A program made the translations under genes and the position numbers. Shown here one piece after another: positions 2,771-49,508 of a stretch of 52,176 nt of DNA (position 1 is the first letter of the stretch; every line of letters begins with the position of its first letter). Origin of the DNA: a bacterium (GTDB lineage Bacteria; Patescibacteriota; Microgenomatia; UBA1400; PJMF01); the NCBI GenBank assembly GCA_027620445.1, contig JAQBYG010000005.1, forward strand, positions 1-52,176, in the 5' to 3' direction. The notes beneath the pieces were generated by a model. It did not search any database and had not been told where the DNA came from. It worked only from the letters and a program-made list of their open reading frames with translations.

Positions 2771-5700
2771 ATGTCACAACTTAATCGGCAAAATTGGGGT
2801 CTTGTGCAAACTACTTTACCAGAATTAGATCTGGTAGGTTTGCAGGTAGAGAGTTACCGGATTTTTCTTGAGCAAGGCATCCGCGAAACCATTGCCGAGA
2901 TTTATGCTGACGAAGGCGTGCAAGATTACACCGGCAAAAACTGGTCGCTGACCTTTGGCGAACACTACTTTGGCAAACAAAAATACTCCATTGCAGAAGC
3001 AAAGCAGAAGGGCGTTTCGTACGATATGCCGCTGTACGTTTCAGCACAGTTGACCAACAAGCGCACAGGTGATGTGCAAGCGCAAGACGTTTTCTTGGGT
3101 GACATCCCAAAAATGACCAACATTGGTACCTTTATTATTAATGGTATTGAGCGCGCTGTAGTGACACAGTTGGTTCGCTCACCAGGTGTCTTTTTTTCAG
3201 GTGAAGCAGATCCTATTACTGGTAGACAGCTGTTTACCGCAGAACTTCGCCCAAAACGAGGTTCTTGGCTCGAGCTGACTGTTGGTAAGAAAAATGTCAT
3301 CACAGTCAAGATTGATCGCCGACGAAAAATCCCTGTCACTACACTTCTTCGCGCGCTTGGTTATAGTACCGACGAAGAAATTACCGCGATGTTGCGCGAT
3401 GAAATTACTCAAGATGAGTATGATTTGATTCAAACAACCCTTTCCAAAGATACGACAAAATCACAGGCAGAAGCGCTCATTGAAATCTATGAGAAGATGC
3501 GCCCTGGCGAACCAGCCGTTATAGAAACAGCAAAAGAGTATCTCAGCCAGCTCTTTTTTGACCGTCGCCGTTATGATCTTGGCAAAGTTGGTCGCTACAA
3601 ACTCAATCGACGTTTGTCGCTCAAAACTAATCCAGATACAACTGTTTTGACCCCAGAAGATATCACAGCCGCAGTCAAGTACCTTATGTTGCTACAGAAC
3701 GAAAAGGGAAAGGTCGATGATATTGATCACTTGAGTAATCGTCGTGTTCGCCAAATTGGCGAGCTCGTCCAAGAGTCAGCGTTCCGTATCGGCTTAATCC
3801 GACTCGAGCGCTCTATCCGAGAAAAAATGTCTCTGACAAAAACGGATGAACTGTTGAGTCCAGCCAGTTTAGTCAATGCACGTCCACTGATTGCGACCAT
3901 CTCAGAGTTCTTCCGACGCAACCGTTTGTCAACTATTCTTGACCAAACCAACCCGCTATCAGAAGTAGACAATCTTCGTCGTTTGTCTGTCATGGGTACC
4001 GGTGGTGTGACACGAGAGCGCGCGTCGTTTTCGATGCGTGACATCAATGCTTCTCAATACTCGAGGATTGACCCCGTTCGTTCGCCAGAAGGTCCAAACA
4101 TCGGTTTAGTCACGTATCTTTCGCTCTACGCACGCGTCAATAGTTTCGGCTTTCTCAAGGCACCATATCAACCAGTCAAAAAAGCTGGCGCAAAAATGAA
4201 GGTGTCCGATGAGATCGTGTATCTGTCTGCAGACGAAGAAGAAGATTACAAGATTACCCACCGCAGTATTAATTTGAACAAAGACAATGTCATCGAAGAT
4301 GAGTGGGTGCCAATTCGCCACATGAACACGTTTATCGAAGGACCGGTTACCGATGTGCAGTACATCGACGTTGTCCCTCGTCAAGTGGTTGGTACTTCCG
4401 CTTCACTGATTCCTTTTATCGCCCACGACGAAGCAAACAGAGCACTGATGGGTACCCACATGCAGTGTCAGGCAGTTCCTCTGATCAAGCCTCAGGCACC
4501 AATTGTTGGCACAGGCATGGAGACAGCTGTAGCTACCTCGATGCATCGCTCGGTCAAAGCACGACATGCTGGAACCGTTGTGAGTGTCGATGGCACAAAA
4601 GTTGAGATCAAGTTATCAAAAGCTGATGCCGCCAAAACTGATGCCTCTCTCAATGATGAAACCACTTTCATCAAAGGTGACGTTGAAACATACAATATAG
4701 AAAAGTTTGTTCGCACCTCGCAGAGTACTTGTTACTCCCAAACCCCAATCGTCACCATAGGACAAGCAGTCAAAGCAGGGGACGTCATTATTGACGGACC
4801 AGCAGCAGACCACGGTGAGTTGGCTCTCGGTAGTAATGTGGTCATTGCCTACACCTCATTTGACGGTCTTGGCTATGAAGATGCTATTGTTATCTCAGAG
4901 CGTCTGGTTCGCGAAGATGTTTTGACCTCGATTCAAATCAACGAGTTCAAAGCAAAAGTAATGGATACTAAGCTCGGACCAGAAGAGTTGACGAGTGATA
5001 TCCCAAATGTTGCCGAAGTGTTTCTCAGTAACTTGACCGAAGATGGCGTAGTCCGAGTCGGTAGTGTTGTGAGCTCCGGTGATATTTTGGTCGGCAAGAT
5101 TGCACCAAAGGGAGAAACAGAGTTGACCCCAGAAGAGCGTTTGCTTCGTGCAATTTTTGGAGAAAAATCTCGAGAAGTTCGCGATACTTCGCTTCGCATG
5201 CCACATGGTGAGTCCGGCACAGTGATTGATGTACAGGTACTAAACGCAGCAAGTGGAGACGAGCTTGATCCAGGTACCCTGCAAGAAGTGACCGTTCGTG
5301 TTGCACAGCTGAGAAAAATTACCGTCGGTGACAAACTCGCAGGACGTCATGGTAACAAGGGTGTTATTTCAAAGATTGTTCCTATGGCAGATATGCCACA
5401 CCTCGAAGATGGCACGCCAGTCGATGTTATTATTTCCCCACTTTCCGTGCTTGCACGTATGAACTTGGGACAATTACTCGAGGCACATGCAGGTTGGGCA
5501 GCCAAGAAACTTGGTTACAAAATCGCAGTTCCAGCCTTTGAGCGCTTTGAGGAAGACAAAATTTGGCAAGAATTGGATCGTGCAGGATTGCCAACAAGTG
5601 GAAAAGCACAACTCTATGATGGCCGAACGGGCGAAGCATATGGTGAGCCAAGTACCGTGGGTATCGGCTATATCCTTAAGCTTTCGCACATGGTCGAAGA

Positions 5701-6223
5701 CAAGATGCATGCGCGTTCGACTGGACCATACTCACTCGTGACCCAACAACCTCTGGGCGGAAAAGCACAGATGGGTGGACAGCGTTTGGGAGAAATGGAA
5801 GTCTGGGCGCTCGAGGCACATCGCGCAGCTCACACCCTACAAGAAATGTTGACGATCAAATCAGATGATGTCATGGGTCGATCCAAGGCGTTCGAAGCTA
5901 TCGTCAAGGGCGAAGTGATTCCAGCACCAACAGTGCCAGAGTCGTTCCGAGTTTTGATGCGAGAGCTCAACTCACTTGGTCTTGATGTAGTACCTCATGG
6001 TGTCGAAGAAGAGATTATCGAAGAAGTTGTTGCCATTCCAGATGGAGACGAGCCTGACATGGTAGAAGATCCAGATGATGCTGATGAGTCCGATGAGGGC
6101 GAAGGTGAAGATGTTTCGAGTGACGATCCAAGCGATGATCCAACTGCGGATACAACCTCAGATGACCTCGCCGATGATGATGCAGATGAAACTGCAGAAC
6201 CAGTAGAGGATGAACAAAACTAA
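2771..6223 (+). CDS. rpoB: DNA-directed RNA polymerase beta subunit
   Basis: GDKLAGRHGNKG, PEGPNIGL and GGQRLGEMEVWALEA motifs; acidic C-terminal tail. Confidence 0.99.
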   Translation: MSQLNRQNWGLVQTTLPELDLVGLQVESYRIFLEQGIRETIAEIYADEGVQDYTGKNWSLTFGEHYFGKQKYSIAEAKQKGVSYDMPLYVSAQLTNKRTGDVQAQDVFLGDIPKMTNIGTFIINGIERAVVTQLVRSPGVFFSGEADPITGRQLFTAELRPKRGSWLELTVGKKNVITVKIDRRRKIPVTTLLRALGYSTDEEITAMLRDEITQDEYDLIQTTLSKDTTKSQAEALIEIYEKMRPGEPAVIETAKEYLSQLFFDRRRYDLGKVGRYKLNRRLSLKTNPDTTVLTPEDITAAVKYLMLLQNEKGKVDDIDHLSNRRVRQIGELVQESAFRIGLIRLERSIREKMSLTKTDELLSPASLVNARPLIATISEFFRRNRLSTILDQTNPLSEVDNLRRLSVMGTGGVTRERASFSMRDINASQYSRIDPVRSPEGPNIGLVTYLSLYARVNSFGFLKAPYQPVKKAGAKMKVSDEIVYLSADEEEDYKITHRSINLNKDNVIEDEWVPIRHMNTFIEGPVTDVQYIDVVPRQVVGTSASLIPFIAHDEANRALMGTHMQCQAVPLIKPQAPIVGTGMETAVATSMHRSVKARHAGTVVSVDGTKVEIKLSKADAAKTDASLNDETTFIKGDVETYNIEKFVRTSQSTCYSQTPIVTIGQAVKAGDVIIDGPAADHGELALGSNVVIAYTSFDGLGYEDAIVISERLVREDVLTSIQINEFKAKVMDTKLGPEELTSDIPNVAEVFLSNLTEDGVVRVGSVVSSGDILVGKIAPKGETELTPEERLLRAIFGEKSREVRDTSLRMPHGESGTVIDVQVLNAASGDELDPGTLQEVTVRVAQLRKITVGDKLAGRHGNKGVISKIVPMADMPHLEDGTPVDVIISPLSVLARMNLGQLLEAHAGWAAKKLGYKIAVPAFERFEEDKIWQELDRAGLPTSGKAQLYDGRTGEAYGEPSTVGIGYILKLSHMVEDKMHARSTGPYSLVTQQPLGGKAQMGGQRLGEMEVWALEAHRAAHTLQEMLTIKSDDVMGRSKAFEAIVKGEVIPAPTVPESFRVLMRELNSLGLDVVPHGVEEEIIEEVVAIPDGDEPDMVEDPDDADESDEGEGEDVSSDDPSDDPTADTTSDDLADDDADETAEPVEDEQN

Positions 6224-6231
6224 AGGAGCAT

Positions 6232-9200
6232 ATGAAAAACATAATAGATTTTACCGCTCTCGAGATTAGAATTGCTTCACCCGAAGTAATCAAATCCTGG
6301 TCCTTTGGCGAAGTTCGCAAGCCAGAGACGATCAACTACCGTTCCCTCAAGGCAGAAAAAGATGGACTCTTTGATGAAAAGATCTTCGGTCCTATGAAGG
6401 ATTACGAGTGTTACTGTGGAAAGTACAAGCGCATTCGCTATCGCGGCATTGTCTGCGACAAGTGTGGTGTCGAAGTAACACAGTCCAAAGTTCGCAGAGA
6501 GCGTATGGGTCACATTAGTTTGGCTGCTCCTGTTTCACACATCTGGTTTTTTAAGGGTGCTCCTTCCAAATTATCACTTTTGCTCGATATTTCTCCCCGA
6601 AACATCAACGCACTGGTGTACTTTTCTAAGTACATTGTGCTCGAGGTAGATGCTGACGAAAAAGCAAAAAACCTCGAAAAGATGGATATAGATTTGGTCG
6701 CAGCGGTCGATGAGCTCAAAGATGTCGCAAAAACAGAAATGGAAAAAGTTGCGCAGACGCTCAAGGAAAATCTTGCCAGTCTCAAAGAAAAAGTAAGCAA
6801 CAAAGAAACGCTGCAGCTAAAGGTGACTGAGCTCGAGCTCAAGGCAAAGAACAAGATTGTTTCACTCAAGAAGCAGCTTGATAGCCAATCAGTACAAACC
6901 GAAGAGATCTACAAAGCGCTCAAGGCGATGGTAAAGAAGATCAATCTTGGTGTGATTCTTTCCGAAGATGAGTACCTTAAAATCGAAGAGTACGATGTAG
7001 CTTCACACTTACGTGTCGGCATGGGTGCAGAGAGTTTGCTCGAACTCGTGCAAGATCTCAAGCTCGATGATCTGATCGAAAAGTTGCGTGTCGAGATGAA
7101 TGACAGCAAAGGTGCGCGTCGTATCAAAGCGACGAAGCGCTTGCGTGTGATCGAGGGCATGCAGAAGGCACAGATTGATCCAACTTGGATGTTCCTTACT
7201 GTGTTGCCAGTTATTCCTCCAGACCTCAGACCAATGGTTCAGCTGAGTGGTGGTCGATTTGCTACCTCAGATTTGAATGACTTATATCGTCGAGTGATCA
7301 ACCGCAATAACCGTTTGAAACACTTGATTGATCTTGGTGCGCCAGAAATCATTTTGCGCAACGAAAAGCGCATGCTCCAAGAAGCAGTTGATTCACTTAT
7401 CGATGGTACCCAAGCACGTCAGTCTCGACGCAGAGCTACCCGCAGACCGTTGAAGTCTCTCAGTGAAATGCTGCGTGGCAAGCAGGGTCGATTTCGACAA
7501 AATCTGTTGGGTAAGCGCGTTGACTACTCTGGTCGTTCGGTCATCGTTGTTGGTCCAGAGCTCAAGCTCAATGAGTGCGGTATTCCAAAGGATATGGCGC
7601 TTGAGATATTCAAGCCATATGTTTTGCGCGAGTTGATCGTGCAAGGTGTTGCACCAAACGTGAAGAGTGCGCGACAGCTGATAGAGCGTCGTGAGCCAAT
7701 GGTGTATGACATTCTCGAACAAGTCACGACTAACCATCCTGTTATCTTGAACCGTGCACCGACCTTACACAAGCTTGGTATGCAGTCGTTCTTCCCCATT
7801 TTGATTGAGGGAAATGCGATTCGTCTTCACCCTTGTGTTTGTTCTGGTTACAACGCTGACTTTGATGGTGACCAAATGGCTGTTCACGTACCGTTGACAG
7901 TTGAGGCACAGGCAGAGGCAGGCGGTCAGATGCTCGCAACACATAACTTACTGAAGCCAGCCAATGGTGAGCCAATCACCGTGCCAAATAAAGAGATGGC
8001 AATGGGTATCTACTACCTCACCATTGTGAATGAAGATAGACCAGCGTCGAAACAGATTTATGCAAGTACGCAAGAAGCACTCTTTGCATACCAGATTGGG
8101 CACATCACTCGTCGTCAACTCATCACTGTTCGCCTCGAGATCGCAGGCAAGACAGAGCGAGTAGAGACGACCGTAGGACGCTTGCTTTTTAATGCAGTTT
8201 TGCCTGACTCATTTGAGTTTATCAATGAGCCGGTGAACGCACAACGCATTAAGCAAATTGTGACTCGTGCTATTCAGATCCACGACAGCGAAGCTGTTTC
8301 CGCACTGATCGATGACATCAAAGATCTTGGGTTCAAAGCAGCGACCGACTCGGGACTTTCAGTCTCGGTTACGGACTGTGCCATGATTCCAGAAAAAGAT
8401 GGCATCATTGAGGAAGCAAACAAGCAGGTTGAGACGATTCAAGAGGAGTACCTCGAGGGAAGTATCTCAGCAGACGAACGCAAACGTTTGGCGTTTGATG
8501 TTTGGATCAAGACAACCGATACCGTTGCTGAACAAACTTGGAACTCCTATTCCGAGAAGAATGCAGTCAAGGTCATGATCAACTCTGGAGGCACCCGTGC
8601 TTCCAAGGATCAGGTTAAGCAGCTTGCCGCAATGCGTGGTTTGGTTGTTGACCCACTTGGAAACATCGTGGAAATGCCGACGAAGTCTAACTTCCGAGAA
8701 GGCCTCTCCATTTTTGAGTACGTGACTTCCGCTCGTGGTTCGAGAAAAGGTTTGACTGACTCTGCCATCAAAACCGCAGATGCAGGTTACCTCACTCGAC
8801 GCTTGTGTGATGTTGCACATGACGTGATCATCAGGTTAGAGGATTGTGGAGCAACCGAGGGAATTGAAATTGCACAGGCAGATCGCCCAGAAATCTTTGC
8901 GACAAGAATCATGGGTCGCGTAGCGGCTCAGGATATCAAGGCAGGCAAAAAGACTTTGGTAAAACAAGGCGAGATTATCACGCCCGCTGTTTCTAAAGAG
9001 ATTGCCGAGGCCAATGTCGGCACAGTATTTGTTCGCTCCCCACTAGCTTGTCAAGCAATTAAGGGTATGTGTTCACAGTGTTATGGTTGGGATTTCTCCA
9101 CCCATGACATGGTGCAACTTGGTGTCCCAGTCGGCATCGTTGCCGCACAATCTATTGGTGAGCCAGGTACGCAGCTAACCATGCGCGTGAAGCACTCGGG

Positions 9201-35208: not shown

Positions 35209-35604
35209 CTAGATGTATCGATATAGTTTGAGAAATGCCAGGCTAGCTCCGAGCATATCAAAACCGACATCGCGCGCAGTCCCGAATCTGCCTGCGACAA
35301 AATTCTGGTGTACCTCGTCAGAAACTGCATAGAGCAGGACGAGAAAAAAAGGGAGCAACCAAACTCGTTTTTCTGTTACCGTCGCATCGCTCGTTATCAG
35401 TTGTGATCGATAGAGTAAAAAGTAGAGTATGGCGTACACCGTGATGTGAGCAATTTTTTTGAAGATAAAATCATAGGTTTCTACATAGAATCCAGGCAAA
35501 ATAGATTGAGCAGAGAGATAAAAGATGAGACTCGCCCAAAGCACGACTGGCAGATAGGCGTTCGCAACAGAATGATAGCTAACTGAGTGTTTTCCCTCGG
35601 GCAT
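35209..35604 (-). CDS. VanZ-like membrane protein
   Basis: LIFYLS, KKIAHITVYAIL, YAVSDEVHQNFVAGR, DVGFD. Confidence 0.88.
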   Translation of the reverse strand: MPEGKHSVSYHSVANAYLPVVLWASLIFYLSAQSILPGFYVETYDFIFKKIAHITVYAILYFLLYRSQLITSDATVTEKRVWLLPFFLVLLYAVSDEVHQNFVAGRFGTARDVGFDMLGASLAFLKLYRYI

Positions 35605-36751
35605 AGAGACTGCTTATGATGACAAGTAGACCTCCCAGTATACCATTGGCGGGAGTCTGTTTCCTGCTAGCTGGTGGTATTTGCTCGCTTTTGGTTTGTG
35701 CGGTGACAGTGTTTTCAGACTCGTAAAATGCAACTGTCTTTCTTATTGAGTACGGGTATGACTCACGCTTCGCTGTACTTCCAAGCACAGAGCCCTTGTC
35801 TGTTGTAGTGTTTTGATTATTAGTTTCCGGGGGTTTCTGAGTAAGAGGAGCTGGAGAGGGAGAAGGATTTGGAGATGCTACCGGTGAGGTCCAGGTCGTT
35901 CCGATGAGATTCAGACTACTGCCAGTAGTACACTCGCTGTAACTAGCTTCGTCAACGAGCACACCCAACTCGGTTGTAATCTTGATGCTGTCTCCGGTGT
36001 TGTTGAGCATGCTGCTACTCCAACTAAATACCGTGTGCTCATTTGCCGGCAGTTTCCCGGAAAGTCGCCGAGTGTTTCCGGTACTATCTGTTGCAATCCA
36101 GTTGAAAATTTCAAGCAGTTCGCCACCATTGAATAGCTTTATCCACTCAGGCTGACCTGAGACTGGGCAGGCCATTATTTCTGAGAGAGAGACGGGTGGT
36201 TTTGGTGCATTTGTAGCTGGTGTAGCTGAGGGGGTGGGAGAGGGAGTTGGGCTTGGCGCCACAGATGGTGAGGGAGTTGGTGATGGCGAGGGGGTTGGAC
36301 TTGGTGTTGCACTACTAGTGGCAACACGACCCGCACTTGGAGTCCCCTCATAGACTTCATTTGACAGCAAATTCAAATGCCAAGAGAGTCCCTTGTTCCC
36401 CGTGGGGTATGACAGCGTTGCCGAGGTAGTTGCGGCTGGGTCTCTGAGCACAACTGTGTCTCCGGTGTTATTCAATTTGCTACCGCTTACTGTAATCACA
36501 GATACTTCGTATGGCTTGAGCACAAAATCAACAAAAGTGTGAAGAATGCTCGACGAACTGAGTGTGTCTGTAAGTGTCCAGTTTGCTAGGTATGCCGAAG
36601 CCGATGCGTTGTTGTACAACTCGACCCATTCATTATCTCCTGTATCAGGAGCGGGATACACTTCTGTGATAACTACTTTTTGGGCGTGTGCTTGATCTGG
36701 AAAACACAGGAGTGTTGTAAGGAGTAGGGCTGCAATGTGAATTCTTTTCAC
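35579..36751 (-). CDS. Surface protein with two lamin-tail domains, Pro/Ser/Thr linkers and a C-terminal hydrophobic anchor
   Basis: Signal peptide ending AHA; two repeats of I.E...P....EW.EL/KL.N ... LNNTGD. Confidence 0.8.
   Translation of the reverse strand: MKRIHIAALLLTTLLCFPDQAHAQKVVITEVYPAPDTGDNEWVELYNNASASAYLANWTLTDTLSSSSILHTFVDFVLKPYEVSVITVSGSKLNNTGDTVVLRDPAATTSATLSYPTGNKGLSWHLNLLSNEVYEGTPSAGRVATSSATPSPTPSPSPTPSPSVAPSPTPSPTPSATPATNAPKPPVSLSEIMACPVSGQPEWIKLFNGGELLEIFNWIATDSTGNTRRLSGKLPANEHTVFSWSSSMLNNTGDSIKITTELGVLVDEASYSECTTGSSLNLIGTTWTSPVASPNPSPSPAPLTQKPPETNNQNTTTDKGSVLGSTAKRESYPYSIRKTVAFYESENTVTAQTKSEQIPPASRKQTPANGILGGLLVIISSLYARGKTLS
36210..36310 (-). repeat. Low-complexity (T/S)P dipeptide repeat linker
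   Basis: ATPSPTPSPSPTPSPSVAPSPTPSPTPSATP within the lamin-tail protein. Confidence 0.8.
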
Positions 36752-36795
36752 CGCTAAAGTTTAAGCGAAGAAGATGACAAGAACCGTAGTGTGGG

Positions 36796-37971
36796 TTAGT
36801 AGTTGACGTGTAAGTAGTACGTGCTAATTCCATCGCTTTGCTCAACTCGAACGTAGCGCAAGTTGCCACCGCCACAAGCTATGCTGCCTCGATAGAGTTT
36901 GCCAGGTTGGACCGCACGCACACGAGTGTCGCCAGAAGTACTCAGCATGTCGATTCCAGTGTGTGGAGAACCACCATAGGCACGACGGACGCGTGCATAA
37001 TATGTCATGCCATAGCCCTGAGTGATCCGAGCAGCATCATGCAGCGGCCAGTCCCAGTTTCCTCCAAAACCAAAAGGGGAGTCTGGTTCATTGTTCCAAA
37101 CAGGCGAAATTGATTTGAGATACGACGCGGGATCGCGATTGACGCCATCCTTGGCAACCTCAAAGTGCAAGTGGGTGCCAGTAGAACACACACTTGAGCC
37201 AGTAATAATGTTGGCAATCGTGTCTCCTGTATTTACCCCTCCAACTTCCGACTCGCTTCCTTTGCCGGCAATAATGGATTGTATAGCCGAAAGCTCTGCA
37301 AGTGTTTTTGCGAGCTCTGATTGATACAAGGATTCATTATTCTTGGTTTCTTTGAGGAGGAATTGTTGCTCATTTCTTTGCTTTGCCAGGACGTTTTGCT
37401 CTCGCTCCAGACGCTCCTGCACTTTTTCAATCTGCTCTTGCTTTTCTTCCTTGGTAGATTTTTGTTGATCAAAGGCTAATCGCTGTTCTTCCGCTCTTTG
37501 CATTGCAACAGCGGTTTGCATTCGCGCTTCCTTGAGATACTGCAATTGCGAAAAGAATGTGTTTGCCGATTTTGATTGTAAAAAGAGTAGATTAGAGTTG
37601 ACGCGTGTTTGCCTGTACTCCGTTTGAATACGTTCGACGAGTAGTGTGGTCAAGCGATCAAGTGATAAATTGAGTCCGCCAATGCGCTGACTCAGATCGC
37701 TGATCTGAGCTTCAAGCAAAGAAAGCTCTGCCTCAGTTTTTTGAATCTGTACTTCTTGGATTTCGACTTTGCCATTAATAATGCTAATGGTATTAGTCAG
37801 GGTGACCCGCTGCTGTTTTGTCTCTTCGAGTTTTTGTTCTAAACAACTCTGCTTGTTCTTGAGACAATCGACATCACTAGTGCTGTTACAAACAGTGGTG
37901 CACTCGATTGCATGAACAGAAGTGAGTCCCAAAGAAAGCCAGAGCAACCAGGTTAGAACGAACAATTTCAT
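36796..37971 (-). CDS. Secreted coiled-coil protein with a circularly permuted M23 peptidase domain (putative FtsEX partner)
   Basis: Signal peptide from ATG 37971; long CwlO/EnvC-like coiled coil; STGTHLHFEV precedes WDWP..ITQGYG..HTGID..YLH. Confidence 0.85.
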   Translation of the reverse strand: MKLFVLTWLLWLSLGLTSVHAIECTTVCNSTSDVDCLKNKQSCLEQKLEETKQQRVTLTNTISIINGKVEIQEVQIQKTEAELSLLEAQISDLSQRIGGLNLSLDRLTTLLVERIQTEYRQTRVNSNLLFLQSKSANTFFSQLQYLKEARMQTAVAMQRAEEQRLAFDQQKSTKEEKQEQIEKVQERLEREQNVLAKQRNEQQFLLKETKNNESLYQSELAKTLAELSAIQSIIAGKGSESEVGGVNTGDTIANIITGSSVCSTGTHLHFEVAKDGVNRDPASYLKSISPVWNNEPDSPFGFGGNWDWPLHDAARITQGYGMTYYARVRRAYGGSPHTGIDMLSTSGDTRVRAVQPGKLYRGSIACGGGNLRYVRVEQSDGISTYYLHVNY

Positions 37972-37981
37972 AAAAGAGTAC

Positions 37982-38854
37982 TTACGCACGTTGCGCAAAT
38001 CTGTTGGTGGCGACAAAACTGGCGAAGCCACCGAGAATTGCGCCAATTAGTACACCAGCACCGAGTTGCAACAGCAGGAATGTCAGCGGAATCGGAAAGG
38101 TAATGATACCGGAGAAAAAAGTGCTGAGTGTTGGTGTCAGGTACAACAAGATAGCAGTGATGGCGACCCAACCGATGAGGGCACCGAGAACTCCGTAGAG
38201 AATGCCTTCGACCACAAATGGTCTGTTGATATACCAGTTTGAGGCGCCGATCAGTCGCATGATAGTTACTGAGTATTTTTTATTGGCAGCTTTGAGCGTA
38301 ATGATAATGGTGATAGTGAGGAACGAAGCGAAGCTGAGGATGCCAACGTCAACGATTCCAGCGATTCGAAGCGCTTTTGTCCATGCACTGAGTTGTTCTA
38401 CGATGTCTTGTTGAAAAATAACATCATCGACAGGGCCTTCTTTTTTGAGTGCTTCGGCAAGCTGGCTGAGTGTATCGACATTATTGGCTGAAACCTCGAT
38501 GCTAGCTGGGAGGATATCTGCCGTGACAAGTTCGAGTAGCAGCGGGGAGTCGTCATACTCTTTTGCGTAATCTTTGAGTGCTTGTTCTTGGGTAATGAGG
38601 CGGACGTCTGTCACCCCTGCAGTGTTGGCGAGAGATTTAGCAAGCGCCTCCATCTCTTGTTTTTCGGTATCGAGCTTAAAAAAAGCAATTACTTGTGGTG
38701 AGGACTCGAAGTGAGAAAGAACGAGGTGGGCGCCAGAAAGAACAAATGAGAGGCGATAGCCTACAAAAAATGTGACTGCTACCATGAGTAGCGCCGCGAG
38801 CGACTGGTATGGTGTCCGGCGCATGGTGGTGAGGGCGTTTGCGAATGCTTGCAT
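37982..38854 (-). CDS. ftsX: Cell division permease FtsX
   Basis: 4 TMs, LPAS, IMRLIGASNWYINRPFVVEG. Confidence 0.92.
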   Translation of the reverse strand: MQAFANALTTMRRTPYQSLAALLMVAVTFFVGYRLSFVLSGAHLVLSHFESSPQVIAFFKLDTEKQEMEALAKSLANTAGVTDVRLITQEQALKDYAKEYDDSPLLLELVTADILPASIEVSANNVDTLSQLAEALKKEGPVDDVIFQQDIVEQLSAWTKALRIAGIVDVGILSFASFLTITIIITLKAANKKYSVTIMRLIGASNWYINRPFVVEGILYGVLGALIGWVAITAILLYLTPTLSTFFSGIITFPIPLTFLLLQLGAGVLIGAILGGFASFVATNRFAQRA

Positions 38855-38856
38855 GG

Positions 38857-39741
38857 TTATTTTACTGTTTCCTCGGTAGCAGCTACTTTTTTCTTGCTAT
38901 TCTTTTTTTCTTTTTCTTGCTTTGGTTTTTCGCTTCCTGACTTACTCTCAGCCTTCTCATTCTTGACAGTGTCCACGACTGGTTTTGTAAATAACCTACC
39001 TAACCAGCTTTCTTGCTTTGGTTTTGAGTTCTCTTTCTCTGGCTTCTTTTCTTCTTTTGGTTTGACTGACCGCACTTTTGCTTTTGAATCATGAACAAGT
39101 GTGCCCGAATCGAGATTGAGAATTCTGGTCTTGTCAGATTTTGTAAGGTCGAGATTGTGTGTGGCAAACAAAATTGTTGTACCAAGTTGATTAATTTTTT
39201 TGAGGAGCTCTACGATGGCTGTTGTATTATCGGAGTCGAGGTTGCCAGTCGGCTCATCGGCGAAGATGAGGTCTGGACCAAGTGCGAGCGCGCGAGCAAT
39301 GCCGACGCGCTGCGACTCCCCGCCGGAGAGTTGTGAAGGGAAGAGGTAGGGCTTTTCTACCAAGCCAATCAGTTTGAGCAAGTCTGTCACTCGGCTTTCA
39401 ATCTCAGCTTGCGGTTGGCCTGCAATCTCGAGCGGCAGTGCAATATTTTCCCAAACGTTTAGTTCTGGCAAGAGCTTGTAGTCTTGAAAGACGACTCCGA
39501 CCTTGCGCCTGAGCTCGGTGACTTTTTTCTGCGGCATGTTTGACAATTCCTCATCAAACAACGAGATTTGCCCAGAGGTTGGGGTGTACTCGCGAATAAT
39601 CAGGCGCATGAGGGTCGTTTTACCGCTGCCAGAAGGTCCAGTTATGAACACAAACTCGCCACTATCTACCGCAAAGGAAACCTGTTTGAGACCGAAGTTA
39701 TTTGGAGAAAACTCTTTCGAGACGTCTTGAAATCGAATCAT
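38857..39741 (-). CDS. ftsE: Cell division ATPase FtsE with C-terminal extension
   Basis: [41 protein letters not shown]. Confidence 0.93.
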
Positions 39742-43692: not shown

Positions 43693-43763
43693 TCGCCCAG
43701 TATACGAAATCTTGCGCGTGAGACAAGGTGCGATTTTGGTCCAGAGGTGCGTATAATGGTGGC
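43693..43763. promoter_or_regulatory. Divergent back-to-back leaderless promoters
   Basis: TATACT (minus, 43704-43699) 6 nt before ATG 43692 and TATAAT (plus, 43752-43757) 6 nt before ATG 43764. Confidence 0.65.
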
Positions 43764-44474
43764 ATGTCAGGCATCTTACCAGAAGTAGTAATTCTCCACG
43801 GTTGGTCTCGGGATGAGTTTCCGAGCGTGAAGTGGCAACCGGTTGTTTTTCGACTGCAACAGGCGGGAGTCAAGGTATCAGCATTGCGGTTGCCGGGTTT
43901 TGAGCTGCCACTTGAGAAACCATGGGGGGTTGATGAGTACATCGCTTGGCTTGCCGAGCAGCTGTCCGAAAAGCAGGATTTTGTCTTAGTAGGTCACTCA
44001 TTTGGCGGCCATCTCGCAGCGACCTACGCCGCTCGTTTTCCTAAGAAAGTGAGCCGATTGGTTTTGATAGCATCTGCTGGTTTTCGCTCTCGCACTCTTT
44101 TTGCTCGATTAAAGCGAACTGGCTTTTATCATCTCGCAAAGTTGGGCAAGCAACTTTCAGACTCCAACACACTTCGGACGATGTTGCATCGATTGGCACG
44201 AGAGCGAGATTACCTGGAAGCAAATGCCGTGATGAGAGAAACAATGCGGCTCGTGATCGCGCACGAGATTGACGCTGATTTGCCGAACATTACTGTTCCT
44301 ACCACAATTATTTGGGGAGCAAATGACAAGGTTACGCCTCTGGAGTTTGCAGAGCGATTACAAGCTGGGATTCCAAGTGCGAAGCTTGAGGTGATAGCCG
44401 GCGCGCGTCATGGAGTGCCATTTACAGATTCTGAAGTCGTAGTAAAGAAGATCTTAGAGGTAGTGCATGTTTAG
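43764..44474 (+). CDS. Alpha/beta hydrolase
   Basis: LHGW, LPGF, GHSFGG elbow, WGANDKVTP, catalytic H in GARH. Confidence 0.9.
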   Translation: MSGILPEVVILHGWSRDEFPSVKWQPVVFRLQQAGVKVSALRLPGFELPLEKPWGVDEYIAWLAEQLSEKQDFVLVGHSFGGHLAATYAARFPKKVSRLVLIASAGFRSRTLFARLKRTGFYHLAKLGKQLSDSNTLRTMLHRLARERDYLEANAVMRETMRLVIAHEIDADLPNITVPTTIIWGANDKVTPLEFAERLQAGIPSAKLEVIAGARHGVPFTDSEVVVKKILEVVHV

Positions 44475-45873
44475 TGTTCTCTTTACGATCTACTTAGGCT
44501 GGATGATCGGTTTTCTTGCGGCCGTTGTGTGGTGGGTAGGATTACTGCAACAAAAGGAGTACCGACTCGACCGAGTGAAGGCACATTTTCACTCCCTGAC
44601 TGGACGTCAAATTCTACTACACATTTTGCCTTCGGTCGGATTACTGCATCCAAAGACTTTTAAGCGGCCTGTGAGAACTCTTCGCGTAAAGCTACTATTT
44701 GCAAGTGCTCTGCTCATTTTATTCTTGATTGCCTATCTGCTCCTGCCTTGGGTTGGTGCTGTGCCCTCACTGTTTATTGCTCGTTTAGTTTTGCTTCCTG
44801 TTTTGTTGTATGTATTTGCTCCGGTCGTCTTGTTGTCGCTCACCACCCTGATGAATGTAGCTGTTTGGGGAATCACGACATACTATTTGCACCGGGTGGA
44901 AAAGCTGATACTGGCAAGGAAGCCATTTGTGATTGGGATAACCGGTAGTTTTGGCAAAACAACGACCAAGCAACTGCTCGCTCATGTGTTGGCGCAGCGC
45001 GGGAGTGTTTGCACAACTCCAGGATCGGTCAACACTGCTTTGGGAGTATCGCGCAACCTACTAAACAACTTGGGGAGGGCAGAAACATTGGTGCTGGAGT
45101 ACGCAGCATACTGCCCGGGAGAGATTGCTCGCTTGGCAGCGGCCATACCTCCCGATATGGTGATTTTGACGGGACTCGGGAAGCAGCACATTGAGCTTTT
45201 TGGTTCGCAGCAGAACATTGCTTTGGCAAAAGCAGAGTTGCTTGAAGCACTACCGGAAGGATCGAGGGTGTTTTGCGCAAATGAGTCTGCGCTTGCAATC
45301 GTTTCGGCTGCAAAGAATCGAGCTACTTTACTGGTGGAAGAAACCTGGCTCAGCACCAAGCCAAAAGCGACGACCACAATTATCGGCGAGCAATTTACAA
45401 ATACCCTCAAGGTTGTTTCTGTCGTGGCTAAGCATCTTGGTGTATCTCAAAAACAAATTACGAGTAGTTTGGAATCTTTTGTGCCTACCGAAAAATGGAT
45501 TCGAAGGCGCACTTTGCGATCTGGCGCAGTGGTCATAGATGACTCTGGGACCAGTAACCCAGATGGCTTCTCTGCGGCTGTTAAAATACTTGCGCAAGAA
45601 AAAGCGCAGAGAAAAATTTTGCTGACCGCGGGAATCGTTGATCTGGGAAAAGAATCAATTAGCATCCATCGTATGCTTGCGACACAAGCTACAGATTGTG
45701 TAAGCGAAGTTTGGTACCTTGGTGAGGTAGGAAGGGAAGTATTTGCAACAGTTTTTGCCAAGAACTTGTTTGCCGGTGAAACCGAAATTTCACAGCGACT
45801 GCAGACGCTTGATGAAAAGACAGCAATCCTAATTGAGGGTCGCATTCCTCGCTGGTTGGAAGCAGCACTATGA
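44467..45873 (+). CDS. MurF-like Mur ligase with an N-terminal membrane domain
   Basis: About 140 aa hydrophobic N-terminus, GITGSFGKTTTK P-loop, VNTALG, H.E.FGS, IDDS..SNP. Confidence 0.85.
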   Translation: MFSVLFTIYLGWMIGFLAAVVWWVGLLQQKEYRLDRVKAHFHSLTGRQILLHILPSVGLLHPKTFKRPVRTLRVKLLFASALLILFLIAYLLLPWVGAVPSLFIARLVLLPVLLYVFAPVVLLSLTTLMNVAVWGITTYYLHRVEKLILARKPFVIGITGSFGKTTTKQLLAHVLAQRGSVCTTPGSVNTALGVSRNLLNNLGRAETLVLEYAAYCPGEIARLAAAIPPDMVILTGLGKQHIELFGSQQNIALAKAELLEALPEGSRVFCANESALAIVSAAKNRATLLVEETWLSTKPKATTTIIGEQFTNTLKVVSVVAKHLGVSQKQITSSLESFVPTEKWIRRRTLRSGAVVIDDSGTSNPDGFSAAVKILAQEKAQRKILLTAGIVDLGKESISIHRMLATQATDCVSEVWYLGEVGREVFATVFAKNLFAGETEISQRLQTLDEKTAILIEGRIPRWLEAAL

Positions 45874-48104
45874 AAAAAAATCAGCCGGTGTTTGGTAGTC
45901 TTGGTTCAAATTACTCTCTCGGGTTTGCCCTGAGACTGCTGTGGTGGTACTTCCTGCCGCCTGCCCGTTCGCAGGTTCAAACGACTTTGGCTCAGCAACT
46001 CCTCGATCGTTTTCCAGAGTTTTCTGAGCCGTATTTTTTTGCGACAGGCAGAGATGCGATTCAGTTTGCACTGCAGCACTTACCGAGCGCAGCAGGTTCC
46101 AAAATTCTTACCCAAGCGTTTAGTTGCGCTGCGATAGAGGAGGCGATCCTGGGCGCAAAAATGAAACCGGTGTTTGTTGATCTTGGCGAACGGTCGACCA
46201 ACCTAGATGCAGCGACACTGCAAGTCGCTTATGAAAAAAATCCCACAGCCAGAATTGTATTGGTGCAGCATGTACTCGGTTGTCCCGCAGATATCGCCTC
46301 TATCCGAGCTTGGTGTGACGAACACAATCTTCTGTTGATTGAAGACTTGGCGCAATCGTTTGGTGGTCTCACTACTACCGGAGAATCCCTTGGCAGCTTC
46401 GGTCACGTCATTGTCACCTCATTTGGGCGAGATAAGATTCTCGACGCAGTTGCAGGAGGTTGCTGCTTGTTCCGTCGAGGAGTGCTGCAGACTGAACCAG
46501 AGCGACCAGAACTGCAAGAGCGAAGTACTTTTCAGCACGCCATCTATCCGCTTTTGACTGTGTTGATTCGAAACACCTTTTCCTCGGGGTTCGGCAAAGT
46601 ACTGCAGCGCTTTGCACAGAATGCCGGCATTATTCGCACCCCTGTGCTTCGAACAACCCCGGTTTTGGGAAAGCTTTCGGTCGGTCAGGCTGCAGCTGTT
46701 CTGGAGCACCTGAAGCATTTGCCGCAACAACTTGAACACCGCTCAACAATCACAGCCATCTATGCGCGCTTGCTCAAAGAGCACTTGCTTTTCCCAGCTG
46801 CTCGAATGAGTGGGTGGTCAGCCTTGCGCGTCCCACTGGCAGTTTCGGATCCGGATGGATTGGCGACAAAACTAAAGCAACATCATTTTTACCTGACCGA
46901 TCGTTGGTATCGAGCGGCTGTTGATAGTGGTTCCATAGCTTGGAACTCTACCTATCATCCAGGTTTATGTCCGCGCGCAGAGACAGCTGCTCGTTCAGTT
47001 TTTACCCTACCAACCCATATGCGGGTAAGTGCTGCAAGCGCCGTTAGATTGGCAGTGTTACTTCGGCAAGTACTTGCACAGCAAGCAGCTTTTTCTGTAC
47101 AGGAAATTACTGATAAAACTACTTGGGAGGCTTGGATAGCTGATCGACCCGAAGCTAACTTTTTACAATCATGGAACTGGGGCGTTTTTCAGCAGCAGCT
47201 CGGGAATAAGATCATTCGGCTGGGATTGTATAACGACGGACAGTTGATCGGTGTTGCGCAAGGTGTTTTTGAGCGAGCCCGTCGCGGCTCGTACTGTAGT
47301 TTTCCTGGTGGTCCGCTGCTTGATTGGGATGATGTACAGGCAGTTGCGGCGCTATTTTCAGAGTTGCAAAAAATTGTTCGAGCGGCTGGCTGTTCTTTTA
47401 TTCGTTTTCGTCCTCAGTTGCTCGATGATGTTGTGGCGAGAGCTGTCGTCAAACAACTCGGCACACTGCATGCAGCGATGCACGTGACAGCTGATCGAAC
47501 AGTCGATATTGATATAACTCAGAGCGATGAGCAGCTACTGGCAAACATGAGAAAAAACACTCGCTCAGCAATTCGAAAGGCAGAAAAAGAGGGAATTACA
47601 ACAACAGTCTCTGACAATCCTGAAGACATCAAAGATTTTTATGAGCAGCAGCGGCTGGTAGCTCAACGCCACAAATTTGTACCATTCAGCTACCTCTTCT
47701 TGTTTGAGCAGTTTCAGACATTTGCAAAAGAACAGCAAGCCTTACTGATATCAGCTTACCGAGGGAGTGATCTACTCGCCACGGCTTTTGTCTTGATGTA
47801 TCACAAGCAGGCTGTGTATCACTATGGCATTTCTACCGCAGAGAACGCTACGCTGCCGGGTGCATATGCAGTGCAGTGGCGGGTAATGATCGAGGCTAAG
47901 CGAGCTGGTTGTGAGAGTTACAATTTATGGGGAGTTGCTCCTCCAGGGATGGAGTCACACCGATTTGCTGGAGTCTCAGTTTTCAAGCGTGGCTTTGGTG
48001 GTAGGGAAGTCCAGTATCTCGAAGCCCAAGATATTCCACTCAAACCAACTTACTGGCTCACAAGGACTTTTGAACTACTGCGCAAGAGGTACCGACACCT
48101 CTGA
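45870..48104 (+). CDS. Fusion of a DegT/DnrJ/EryC1/StrS PLP aminotransferase and a FemAB/MurM-family tRNA-dependent peptidyltransferase
   Basis: N-half: TGRDAI, IEDLAQSFG, SFGRDK, TLPTH; C-half: FLQSWNWG, GPLLDW, M..NTRSAIRKA.K, YNLWG, FKRGFGG. Confidence 0.88.
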   Translation: MKKNQPVFGSLGSNYSLGFALRLLWWYFLPPARSQVQTTLAQQLLDRFPEFSEPYFFATGRDAIQFALQHLPSAAGSKILTQAFSCAAIEEAILGAKMKPVFVDLGERSTNLDAATLQVAYEKNPTARIVLVQHVLGCPADIASIRAWCDEHNLLLIEDLAQSFGGLTTTGESLGSFGHVIVTSFGRDKILDAVAGGCCLFRRGVLQTEPERPELQERSTFQHAIYPLLTVLIRNTFSSGFGKVLQRFAQNAGIIRTPVLRTTPVLGKLSVGQAAAVLEHLKHLPQQLEHRSTITAIYARLLKEHLLFPAARMSGWSALRVPLAVSDPDGLATKLKQHHFYLTDRWYRAAVDSGSIAWNSTYHPGLCPRAETAARSVFTLPTHMRVSAASAVRLAVLLRQVLAQQAAFSVQEITDKTTWEAWIADRPEANFLQSWNWGVFQQQLGNKIIRLGLYNDGQLIGVAQGVFERARRGSYCSFPGGPLLDWDDVQAVAALFSELQKIVRAAGCSFIRFRPQLLDDVVARAVVKQLGTLHAAMHVTADRTVDIDITQSDEQLLANMRKNTRSAIRKAEKEGITTTVSDNPEDIKDFYEQQRLVAQRHKFVPFSYLFLFEQFQTFAKEQQALLISAYRGSDLLATAFVLMYHKQAVYHYGISTAENATLPGAYAVQWRVMIEAKRAGCESYNLWGVAPPGMESHRFAGVSVFKRGFGGREVQYLEAQDIPLKPTYWLTRTFELLRKRYRHL

Positions 48105-49508
48105 TTATTTTCGACTGACGTCATACGTAAGCAAGTGTTCAAGAAAAATTGCTGGCGGATCTTCTAGGATAAATTGTTGAAACTCTTGGTAAATTTGCTT
48201 GCGCTCTGCTTGTTCAAAGGTTTGTCTTCCTTTTTCGAGCAGGTTGTCAATACGGGTGTTTTTGTAGTGAGTGAAGTTAGTAGTTTGGTCGGAGTGCCAA
48301 AGGTGGTATTGGTCAGGATCAGCAGGAGATTCTTGTCCGATAAGGAGCAACTGAAAATCATTCGTGTCAGGAAAGTTAGAAATTTTCAGTGTCACTTTGA
48401 CGCGCATGTTGGGACATACATCTTTGTTTTCAATTGCTTTTGCAGTGAGACACTGTTCTTCGGCGTAGGTGCCAAACTCTTCCCACTCTTTTTTGACGCT
48501 CTCAGCTCGCTGTGAAAAAGTAGGTGTAGTCGTAAGGGTGAAGAGAAGCGGGAGTTGTGGTGGGTCATCAAACAATCGCTCGAGACCACGCTCCCAGTCT
48601 TTTTCATACGTTTTACCGCCAGGTAAATATGCCCAAGAATTTTTACTGATCGGACCAATTGCTCTGGTTTCATCGGTTGGCTTAGACGTGATGTACGAAA
48701 GCGCCTGGCGAGTATTCTTTGACATGAGTGGGTCTTGTAGGTTGAAAAAGATCGCCACATATCGATCGTCATCAAATCGTTTCGTTACAGTCGTTGTTGG
48801 CCAATCGTACATTTCGTGCTGCTTTACCAGATCGAGCAGCAGGTCGATCTTGCCCTGTTTAAATGCTATCTGCGCATCGTCTTCAGTTTGGTAAAAACGA
48901 TAAATATAGCGCTCTTGTTCACTGTCCACTACAAGCTCTTTCAGTTGGTTATTTCGAGTGCTGTAGTCACTAATGTAGTGATCCCCAATCCCTACAGGGA
49001 GTGGCCTGCTACGGGAAAAAGGTACTTTCTGTTCTGACATTTTCAACAATGGCTTTGCCACCAGACTAGGAAAAGGTGAAAACTCTGCAGGCAACTGAAA
49101 AATAAGATCATGGGCGGTGGTGGCGACAGTTGTATCCTTGAGACTAAACTGCATTTCTTCTGGCAGGACCTTGTTGCCGTCACTCCACACGAGGTTTTCT
49201 TTCAGTACAAAGCGATACGTCTTACCGCCTTGTTCTACGGCCCAGCGTTGTGCCAAAACAGGGACGACATCGCCATCTTCTGTCACCGCAGTCAAGCCCA
49301 CGCTGAGTTGATCTGTGATAATTTCTGGTAGCGAGAAAATGCTGTACTGTCCGATGATGCCAATATAAAAGCGTTCTCGTTTTTCTAGGCGAGTTGCGAT
49401 GATTGGAACAACAAATGAAAAGAATCCAATGGCGACTGCGAGCGAAGCAATCACCATCAATCCATGCTTACGAATGTAAGCAGTAAAATACCAATATGCT
49501 TTGCGCAT
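48105..49508 (-). CDS. Family 5 (oligopeptide-type) ABC substrate-binding protein, TM-anchored
   Basis: GL...G.V.P.LA..W, F.LK....WSDG, DPDQY..WHS, Y.N..ID.LLE.GR, EDPPAIFL. Confidence 0.87.
   Translation of the reverse strand: MRKAYWYFTAYIRKHGLMVIASLAVAIGFFSFVVPIIATRLEKRERFYIGIIGQYSIFSLPEIITDQLSVGLTAVTEDGDVVPVLAQRWAVEQGGKTYRFVLKENLVWSDGNKVLPEEMQFSLKDTTVATTAHDLIFQLPAEFSPFPSLVAKPLLKMSEQKVPFSRSRPLPVGIGDHYISDYSTRNNQLKELVVDSEQERYIYRFYQTEDDAQIAFKQGKIDLLLDLVKQHEMYDWPTTTVTKRFDDDRYVAIFFNLQDPLMSKNTRQALSYITSKPTDETRAIGPISKNSWAYLPGGKTYEKDWERGLERLFDDPPQLPLLFTLTTTPTFSQRAESVKKEWEEFGTYAEEQCLTAKAIENKDVCPNMRVKVTLKISNFPDTNDFQLLLIGQESPADPDQYHLWHSDQTTNFTHYKNTRIDNLLEKGRQTFEQAERKQIYQEFQQFILEDPPAIFLEHLLTYDVSRK

Follow-up and report, generated by a model that had tools for sequence, protein, structure and literature searches.

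A murF cassette with a membrane ligase and a DegT-Fem fusion as a candidate substitute for Alr and Ddl in Patescibacteria

The window analysed here, meaning the whole stretch of 52,176 nucleotides from contig JAQBYG010000005.1 (assembly GCA_027620445.1; GTDB lineage Patescibacteriota, Microgenomatia, UBA1400, PJMF01), belongs to a metagenome-assembled genome of 909 kb in 56 contigs with 96% completeness (labelled G000), and homologs of its proteins are labelled Pacebacteria, Microgenomates or Patescibacteria. It carries three consecutive genes for a serine alpha/beta-hydrolase, a membrane-bound MurF-type ligase and a fusion of a DegT-like pyridoxal phosphate (PLP) domain with a Fem-like aminoacyl-tRNA transferase domain. 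The fusion is considered here as a possible substitute for alanine racemase (Alr) and D-alanine-D-alanine ligase (Ddl). The three open reading frames (ORFs) are:

43764..44474, + strand: ORF 1, hydrolase, 236 amino acids (248 from an alternative GTG start at 43728).
44467..45873, + strand: ORF 2, MurF-type ligase, 468 amino acids.
45870..48104, + strand: ORF 3, DegT-Fem fusion, 744 amino acids.

ORFs 1 and 2 overlap by 8 nucleotides (ATGTTTAG) and ORFs 2 and 3 by 4 nucleotides (ATGA), all on the + strand, which bears out the translational coupling proposed in the initial annotation of this DNA. The coupled operon is also supported by a gene order kept across relatives, and appears devoted to peptidoglycan-precursor synthesis. 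Within the fusion the following features were located:

45870..47084, + strand: DegT-like fold-type-I PLP domain, residues 1-405 (PF01041, Foldseek).
46341-46358, + strand: EDLAQS, residues 158-163, with Asp159 in E-D-L-A-Q.
46419-46436, + strand: S-F-G-R-D-K, residues 184-189, with the putative Schiff-base Lys189.
47043-47117, + strand: domain junction, residues ~392-416.
47085..48104, + strand: FemX-like double-GNAT aminoacyl-tRNA transferase domain, residues 406-744 (PF02388), coiled-coil insert absent.
Within 47976-47999, + strand: Fem catalytic pair F705-K706.

One frame of 744 codons holds both Pfam domains, DegT_DnrJ_EryC1 (PF01041) with 111.7 bits (cutoff 19.8, residues 59-391) and FemAB (PF02388) with 118.6 bits (cutoff 24, residues 416-709), and the initial description of a PLP fold with D-x-A-Q and SFGRDK motifs joined at about position 47080 to a complete Fem domain is confirmed, with the catalytic residues kept in both halves. 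No variation at K189, D159 or S184 was seen across 35 fusions and 45 DegT-like homologs; with the roles of K189 and D159 assigned by alignment, the domain has the Schiff-base lysine (not histidine as in the E1/ColD dehydratases) and the pyridine-nitrogen aspartate expected of the family. In the second half, F705 and K706 are invariant in the 35 fusions and correspond to F304-K305 of FemX, the string VFK being common to both proteins with the HMMER local alignment offset by 3 residues, while Arg211, which in FemX is involved in binding UDP-MurNAc-pentapeptide, and Tyr215 align at low confidence to Ser and Leu. A catalytic role of K305 in Weissella FemX is described in the review PMC12945691.

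An AlphaFold2 model built with the 35 fused homologs has a mean predicted local distance difference test score (pLDDT) of 92.9 and a predicted TM-score of 0.89. Foldseek relates the PLP domain to ArnB, perosamine synthase (Per) and DesV (TM-scores 0.71-0.77, normalised to the target) and the Fem domain to Weissella FemX (TM-score 0.82, root mean square deviation ~3.2 Å) as well as to Sbb17 and Sba18 (0.77-0.80). In sequence the PLP domain matches solved DegT members with at most 63 bits, mainly in the PLP-binding half (residues ~46-205), with a divergent C-terminal half. Judged from the conserved residues and the model, both domains look active and form what is predicted to be a confident unit.

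As the window stems from a metagenome-assembled genome of 56 contigs, an artefact of assembly or gene calling, with the genes being unrelated neighbours, has to be considered. A 2418-nucleotide contig from the probable source run, which is not independent, spans 45581-47998 with 0 differences; a second contig, 472 nucleotides long and from another study, aligns to 46945-47413 across the junction and is ~92% identical, with 39 substitutions and 0 indels. Two further species of the genus (G002 and G003, 71% and 62% identity) and two distant loci also keep the frame open throughout. Among the best 150 representatives from a library of 1.8 billion proteins (clusters at 50% identity), 28 reach at least 700 amino acids, the others being either DegT-like (~400 amino acids, aligned to residues 5-400) or Fem proteins (~340 amino acids, aligned to residues 408-744). 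Together with the pLDDT of the model these observations effectively refute the artefact.

The ligase upstream of the fusion is divided as follows:

44467..44925, + strand: N-terminal membrane domain, residues 1-153 (hydropathy, conserved motifs).
44926..45873, + strand: ATP-binding and C-terminal domains (Mur_ligase_M, Mur_ligase_C).
44929-44970, + strand: P-loop G-I-T-G-S-F-G-K-T-T.

Pfam recognizes Mur_ligase_M (86.9 bits, residues 158-285) and Mur_ligase_C, and the top NCBIfam match is murF with 168 bits, below the 288.6 cutoff of TIGR01143. MurF structures (best matches in the Protein Data Bank 3zl8, 4cvk and 1gg4) align only from residue ~154 of the query, equivalent to MurF residue ~83-105, and the canonical three-domain architecture is therefore not present: residues 1-153, with hydrophobic segments at 1-28 and 69-138 in a simple Kyte-Doolittle scan, stand in the place of domain 1, which in MurF binds the UDP moiety. 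The membrane domain carries the motifs Q-Q-K-E-Y-R-x-D-R (residues 28-36) and K-R-P-x-x-T (T71) and P119, and because Q28, Y32, T71 and P119 are invariant in 18 orthologs, it is probably more than an anchor.

The position of the gene argues for MurF in spite of the low score. In relatives it is embedded in the division and cell wall (dcw) cluster (L036, L042, L045, L104), and it is the sole MurF-type gene of many genomes. At least one MurF-type gene was found in each of the 41 related genomes and in none with a match above the cutoff, and the membrane type is the only MurF-type match in G010, G012, G016, G017, G019, G023-26, G029-31, G038 and G039. In G000, MurC, MurD and MurE score above their cutoffs, the two MurF-type genes (ORF 2 and a soluble one on contig C38) score below, and the dcw cluster (mraZ ... 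murE-cofD-murC-murB-murA-mraY-ftsW-murG) has no murF. The MurF-like, membrane-bound ligase of the initial annotation is thus present, but as the positional murF of the relatives' dcw clusters and not as an extra tailoring enzyme. The comparative evidence shows the membrane MurF-type ligase, always accompanied by a live serine hydrolase, as the predicted enzyme of the last cytoplasmic stem-peptide ligation, and the three genes are the murF cassette of this lineage.

Further observations concern the Mur enzymes of these genomes. The soluble MurF-type gene of G000 (530 amino acids, G000:C38:19686-21278; L139 7687-9279, - strand) is convergent with an mreB-mreC-PBP2 cluster; in Saccharimonadales-, Davies- and Levybacteria-like genomes the cassette itself has this soluble type, and both types occur together in a few genomes only (G000, G002, G003, G005, G021, G034). 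The MurE of G000 (410 amino acids, G000:C11:27850-29082; L001 1360-2592) aligns with the MurE profile from about position 97, its usual N-terminal domain being absent, and is nearer to diaminopimelate-adding than to lysine-adding models (304 vs 195 bits). A CofD/YvcK-family gene lies between murE and murC in the G000 dcw cluster (G000:C11, L140 10080-11060), and in G026 and G034 such a gene immediately precedes the cassette (L035 11099-12211, L036 11190-12176).

The first gene of the cassette matches Pfam Abhydrolase_6 with 76.9 bits and also S33-type aminopeptidase models, and one feature marks its active site:

43989-44012, + strand: nucleophile elbow G-H-S-F-G-G (G77-H78-S79-F-G81-G82), with Ser79.

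The elbow and the triad Ser79-Asp188-His216, invariant in 25 of 25 aligned orthologs, give the G-x-S-x-G, aspartate and histidine expected of the alpha/beta-hydrolase family. The hydrolase adjoins the MurF-type gene in every locus that has upstream DNA. Its place in the operon, as initially annotated, stands; its partner, though, is MurF and not DegT-Fem, the pair being kept where DegT-Fem is absent. As the pair of hydrolase and transmembrane (TM) MurF also occurs without DegT-Fem (G021, G023, G031, G038), the cassette consists of two sub-modules. The hydrolase could serve proofreading or release, but stays with MurF whichever dipeptide source is there.

Scanning species-level genomes with the DegT-domain profile gave 80 named loci of the candidate phyla radiation (CPR). 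Upstream of DegT, 56 have the hydrolase followed by the TM-MurF and 23 a soluble MurF followed by the hydrolase, one locus starting inside DegT without upstream DNA; Fem is adjacent downstream in 74, fused in 4 and cut off by the contig end in 2. DegT and Fem hence co-occur nearly always, usually as separate adjacent genes, in reply to the question of fused versus split neighbourhoods raised by the initial annotation. The order hydrolase, TM-MurF, DegT-like, Fem recurs in 23 same-order neighbourhoods inside and outside the synteny of the window. In other families (L036, L042, L045, L104, L114, L124) the cassette is embedded in the dcw cluster between murC/murB/murA and mraY-murI-murD-ftsW-murG-ftsA-ftsZ, for example as murC-murB-murA-hydrolase-TM-MurF-DegT-Fem-...-ftsW-murG-ftsA-ftsZ or as murD-murI-MurF-hydrolase-DegT-Fem-mraY-ftsW-murG. 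Taken together, the cassette families, namely the DegT-like clade, the Fem of the cassette and the membrane-type MurF plus hydrolase, are present in roughly a fifth to a quarter of the sampled Patescibacteria.

The cassette DegT-like proteins form their own clade, always linked to Fem and MurF, in a tree from a quick maximum-likelihood search with Shimodaira-Hasegawa-like approximate likelihood ratio test support only and midpoint root. In this tree the four fusions are split over two subclades, the window's genus on one side and L121 with L132 on the other, so the fusion arose at least twice. An 803-amino-acid frame in G158 may represent a third case. Frames of 908-952 amino acids in G366, G379 and G405 (family f29) were not counted as larger fusions since the open-frame lengths differ between two scans, the DegT part measuring 432-516 amino acids. 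A general rule that the DegT-like protein never occurs without Fem was likewise rejected, with solitary homologs found in family f33 (L133-L135) and G341 (L138); it holds only inside the cassette clade, as the G341 homolog is an ordinary DegT (224 bits) and the f33 proteins fall outside the clade in the quick tree. In G036 and G035 a gene for a transglutaminase-core protein lies beside the DegT-Fem pair (L033 10450-11280 and L046 10249-11241, respectively), and in G035 two weak Ddl-like ATP-grasp genes lie near the pair, whose DegT is placed among ordinary DegTs by the quick tree; this arrangement may be a different Fem-linked system.

The phyletic distribution of the canonical dipeptide enzymes is the observation that carries the interpretation. 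Of 41 related genomes, 24 have the module Fem and 17 do not; canonical Ddl, defined here by at least 150 bits, is present in 15 of the 17 without and in 1 of the 24 with the module (G026, whose cassette lacks DegT). No match to PF07478 at E<=1e-8 was found in 14 module-bearing genomes. Full-size Alr occurs in none of the 24 module genomes vs 5 of the 17 other relatives, and a fold-IV D-amino-acid transaminase was found in none of the 41.

A phylum sample of 401 genomes, in which lists were cross-tabulated by hand, comprises 97 DegT-like-positive and 304 negative genomes. Ddl (E<=1e-40) is present in 4 of the 97 vs 126 of the 304, the latter including one unpublished genome (G194), and Alr (E<=1e-20) in 10 of the 97 vs 135 of the 304. 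All four genomes with both Ddl and the DegT-like protein belong to families f43 and f33, the family representatives of which lie outside the cassette clade. As the DegT-domain profile is not clade-specific, 23 of the 97 genomes (f33, f43, G341, G035) were dropped by family, extrapolating from 7 tree rows; of the 74 left, none has Ddl and 5 have Alr, two with weak matches. In the mixed-state families f36, f86 and f119, Ddl and the DegT-like protein do not overlap. A strict complementarity of Alr with the cassette was considered and rejected, 12 relatives lacking both and three phylum genomes having both, and the pattern was kept as depletion.

Ddl and the DegT-Fem pair furthermore share a genomic position. 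The gene that immediately follows hydrolase and TM-MurF on their strand in G021 and G023 is a genuine Ddl, scoring 279-284 bits against a cutoff of 245.65. G038 has its Ddl next to the hydrolase-TM-MurF pair in convergent orientation, and G006-G009 have theirs next to the soluble MurF, with Alr there too in G009. These positions indicate that Ddl and DegT-Fem alternate in one slot beside murF.

In G000 neither Alr nor canonical Ddl was found. Its sole Ddl-family gene scores 174 bits vs the 245.65 cutoff and sits in a van-like operon (L141, G000:C3:49000-57000, at 2935-5509 on the - strand and 5690-6370 on the + strand), and similar weak Ddl matches occur in all five genomes of the window's genus. 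The operon encodes a VanX-like D-Ala-D-Ala dipeptidase (258 amino acids), the divergent Ddl-family ligase (359 amino acids) and an Asp/Glu-type amino-acid racemase (178 bits, above cutoff), and adjoins a gene for a divergent response regulator of the OmpR/VanR type; the operon as a whole may feed the soluble second MurF.

Because the pair and Ddl are near-mutually exclusive and share a slot, and Alr is depleted, we infer that the DegT-Fem pair supplies the dipeptide of MurF by PLP and aminoacyl-tRNA chemistry and displaces Alr and Ddl, a proposal that, resting on comparative sequence data, we regard as evenly poised between right and wrong. The DegT-like PLP enzyme and the Fem-like transferase would make the dipeptide (D-Ala-D-Ala or an analogue) for addition to UDP-MurNAc-tripeptide. 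By analogy with DhpH, which is compared below, the PLP domain would generate or epimerise an alanine-type residue with a free alpha-amine; the options for this site are to racemise free alanine, to epimerise the N-terminus of the dipeptide or to transaminate pyruvate. The Fem domain would then form the peptide bond with aminoacyl-tRNA as the activated acyl donor, replacing the ATP-grasp chemistry of Ddl, and the intermediate would pass between the two active sites owing to fusion or close adjacency.

The initially proposed logic that the PLP domain makes the amine which the Fem domain acylates stays viable. The outcome then envisaged, a non-standard cross-bridge or an aminoacylated glycan, has become less likely than replacement of Alr and Ddl, in view of the near-complete mutual exclusion between the pair and canonical Ddl and of their common genomic slot. 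A second Fem paralog (~25% identity) is a better candidate for cross-bridges than the cassette Fem, as nearly every relative has it, all 24 with the module included.

Several points weigh against a DegT-Fem route to the dipeptide. For Fem enzymes only transfers of L-amino acids or glycine are known, and characterised DegT-family members all act on keto-sugars or inososes, not on amino acids; the route of a D-residue to stem position 4 is unexplained. A search for the D-aminoacyl-tRNA deacylase Dtd (PF02580) found none in the window's family (25 genomes) and 10 carriers among 16 genomes from the order's other families; 8 of these 10 bear the cassette, which lends no support to free D-aminoacyl-tRNA intermediates. 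Individual genomes depart from the pattern: G026 carries the cassette Fem together with Ddl, G034 has Fem without DegT and without Ddl, G022 has neither cassette nor Ddl, and the cassette DegT occurs together with a full Alr in G280, G385 and G399. A strong Ddl (1e-40) is also missing from 178 of the 304 DegT-like-negative phylum genomes. The genus of G000 keeps a divergent Ddl-like ligase and a second soluble MurF, and since both the van-like ligase and the spare soluble MurF are present, the cassette need not be the sole dipeptide source in G000. All counts, finally, derive from comparative genomics of related genomes and not from independent samples.

The genome that retains Ddl alongside the cassette Fem suggests that Fem can have a Ddl-independent role, and brings in synthesis of a FemX-type branch, which corresponds to the initial interpretation as applied to peptidoglycan. 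Between the MurF and MraY steps, Fem would aminoacylate UDP-MurNAc-pentapeptide on the side-chain amine at position 3, and the PLP domain would either generate that amine or modify the free alpha-amine of the newly added residue by epimerisation or transamination. We hold this to be unlikely, though more probable than the other alternatives: the nearest solved relatives of the Fem domain are FemX of Staphylococcus aureus and Weissella, the gene lies between murF and mraY in dcw clusters, and there are several Fem paralogs per genome, as in bacteria with multi-residue bridges. It leaves the absence of Ddl, the depletion of Alr and the shared slot unexplained, however, and MurF without a known dipeptide source; a universal second Fem already exists, and the Arg211 of Weissella FemX, which takes part in UDP-MurNAc-pentapeptide binding, aligns to Ser, if at low alignment confidence. 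The genomic pattern favours an acceptor other than a side-chain amine of UDP-MurNAc-pentapeptide or lipid II.

That the characterised DegT members use sugar-type ketones points to another product, an aminoacylated amino sugar on a non-peptidoglycan glycan or nucleotide sugar, where DegT would aminate a nucleoside diphosphate-linked keto-sugar and Fem aminoacylate the amine, similar to Orf11/Sbb17 with streptothrisamine. Sbb17 and Sba18 are structural neighbours of the Fem domain at the TM-scores given above, seven extended short-chain dehydrogenase/reductase (epimerase/dehydratase-family) genes in G000 could supply keto-sugars, and other DegT lineages are Fem-linked too (f43, G035). Yet no dehydratase, oxidoreductase, glycosyltransferase or flippase was found in any of the 80 cassettes, nor a GFO_IDH_MocA oxidoreductase in G000; the linkage is to murF and the dcw cluster and not to glycan loci, and the exclusion of Ddl is left unexplained, which together make this alternative very improbable.

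The downstream neighbour of the operon bears on a third possibility, salvage. A membrane-anchored family-5 solute-binding protein (oligopeptide/MppA-like) is encoded at 48105-49508 on the - strand, convergent with the operon with zero intergenic bases, and is syntenic with the cassette throughout the window's family, with no permease genes adjacent. In an episymbiont, MurF, hydrolase and DegT-Fem might process imported, host-derived muropeptides in the manner of Mpl/LdcA, and Ddl would be dispensable because the peptide ends come from the host. Besides the convergent peptide-binding gene, the S33-type aminopeptidase matches of the hydrolase and the small genomes without Alr, without D-amino-acid transaminase (Dat) and often without Ddl are in line with such remodelling. 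We nevertheless judge it improbable: the solute-binding gene is syntenic only in the family-level context of the window and not in dcw-embedded cassettes, neither permease nor ATPase genes adjoin it, MurC, MurD and MurE are intact and stems are therefore built de novo, and the aminoacyl-tRNA transferase would have no role.

A dipeptide made by DegT-Fem remains our favoured reading. More tentatively still, and short of an even chance, many Patescibacteria may have dropped Alr and Ddl for a tRNA-dependent, ATP-grasp-independent PLP and Fem route to D-Ala-D-Ala or a new stem terminus, with the substrate-holding domain of MurF being now a membrane domain. Wall synthesis almost universally runs through Alr, Ddl and MurF, which are the targets of D-cycloserine and, indirectly, vancomycin. 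If true, a widespread non-homologous replacement would add new enzymology to primary cell-wall metabolism, predict a novel stem-peptide terminus or a new way to D-Ala-D-Ala and change the scoring of peptidoglycan capacity in CPR, where missing ddl and alr are usually read as auxotrophy or host dependence. It would also offer a testable function for the three unannotated families of the cassette (DegT-like, Fem, and membrane MurF plus hydrolase). A literature search, with subscription journals and supplements largely outside its coverage, returned no account of the fusion, the membrane MurF or the exclusion of Ddl; what appears new is the combination of parts from known superfamilies and their apparent role in displacing Ddl and Alr.

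With respect to expression, two candidate signals frame the operon:

43752..43757, + strand: -10-like hexamer, a perfect TATAAT by consensus match, 6 nucleotides before the ATG at 43764.
48085..48102, + strand: terminator-like hairpin followed by a T-rich tail (pattern scan), at the operon end and overlapping the stop codon.

A pattern scan upstream of the ATG at 43764 found neither a -35 match nor a Shine-Dalgarno sequence. A leaderless transcript from 43764 is possible on these grounds, and the leaderless promoter of the initial annotation is a candidate compatible with the sequence. The divergent intergenic region 43693-43763 (71 nucleotides) has -10-like boxes 6-7 nucleotides from both start codons, the - strand box TATACT ending at 43699 ahead of the ATG at 43692 of a peptidyl-prolyl isomerase gene, and both this gene and the hydrolase gene may be leaderless.

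The remaining genes of the window are housekeeping genes (rpoBC, ribosomal proteins, secY, ftsEX, prfB, RNase Y, recA), and Rfam and tRNA scans of the window gave no matches. Upstream of the cassette region a - strand operon at 35579-39741 comprises ftsE (38857-39741), ftsX (37982-38854), an M23 peptidase gene (36796-38046) and a gene for a Lamin-tail-domain (LTD) protein (35579-36751); patescibacterial operons combining ABC transporters, peptidases and LTD proteins are mentioned in the preprint 10.1101/2025.01.14.632903. At 639-2576 on the + strand a second alpha/beta-hydrolase gene (639-1589) directly precedes a YceG/MltG-family gene (1617-2576), another pairing of a hydrolase with a cell-wall gene.

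Among known systems, DhpH qualifies the initial statement that no characterised fusion of this kind exists, its N-terminal domain being PLP-dependent and making the amine, although it is not known to belong to the DegT family. The precedent lies in its Fem-like C-terminal domain, DhpH-C, which in dehydrophos biosynthesis of Streptomyces luridus uses Leu-tRNA and L-Ala(P) to give Leu-Ala(P), according to the review PMC12945691, which also describes Orf11, a Fem-like enzyme acting on an amino sugar; Fem-like enzymes are thus able to acylate the amines of small molecules. Compared by description, DhpH resembles the fusion as one polypeptide whose Fem-like C-terminal domain acylates the amine of an alanine analogue to a dipeptide, and differs in belonging to actinomycete secondary metabolism, whereas the fusion stands in the murF/dcw context of CPR.

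FemX of Weissella viridescens (UDP-MurNAc-pentapeptide:L-Ala transferase; 1NE9, 4II9) and FemX/FmhB of S. aureus (6SNR) share with the Fem domain the double-GNAT fold without coiled coil, the F-K motif and the context of peptidoglycan precursors. Identity is only ~19%, however, Arg211 appears not to be conserved in the low-confidence alignment, the protein is fused or adjacent to a PLP enzyme and the cassette Fem tends to be absent where Ddl is present, a distribution that Fem enzymes are not known to show. Members of the DegT/DnrJ/EryC1/StrS family (DesV, perosamine synthase, ArnB, PglE, WbpE) belong to the same Pfam family as the PLP domain and agree with it in fold and in the PLP lysine and aspartate, but the cassette clade is separate, linked to Fem and MurF and without sugar-pathway context.

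With Ddl and Alr the pair would share the proposed function of providing the MurF dipeptide, the slot beside murF and a complementary phyletic pattern, without homology: an ATP-grasp enzyme (Ddl) and a fold-III PLP enzyme (Alr) contrast with a fold-I DegT-like PLP enzyme and an aminoacyl-tRNA-dependent GNAT transferase here. The cassette ligase, lastly, has the central ATP-binding and C-terminal domains, the P-loop and, in relatives, the dcw position of canonical MurF (TIGR01143; 1GG4, 3ZL8, 4CVK), from which it is set apart by a conserved membrane domain of ~150 residues in place of domain 1, a score below the cutoff and a constant hydrolase partner.

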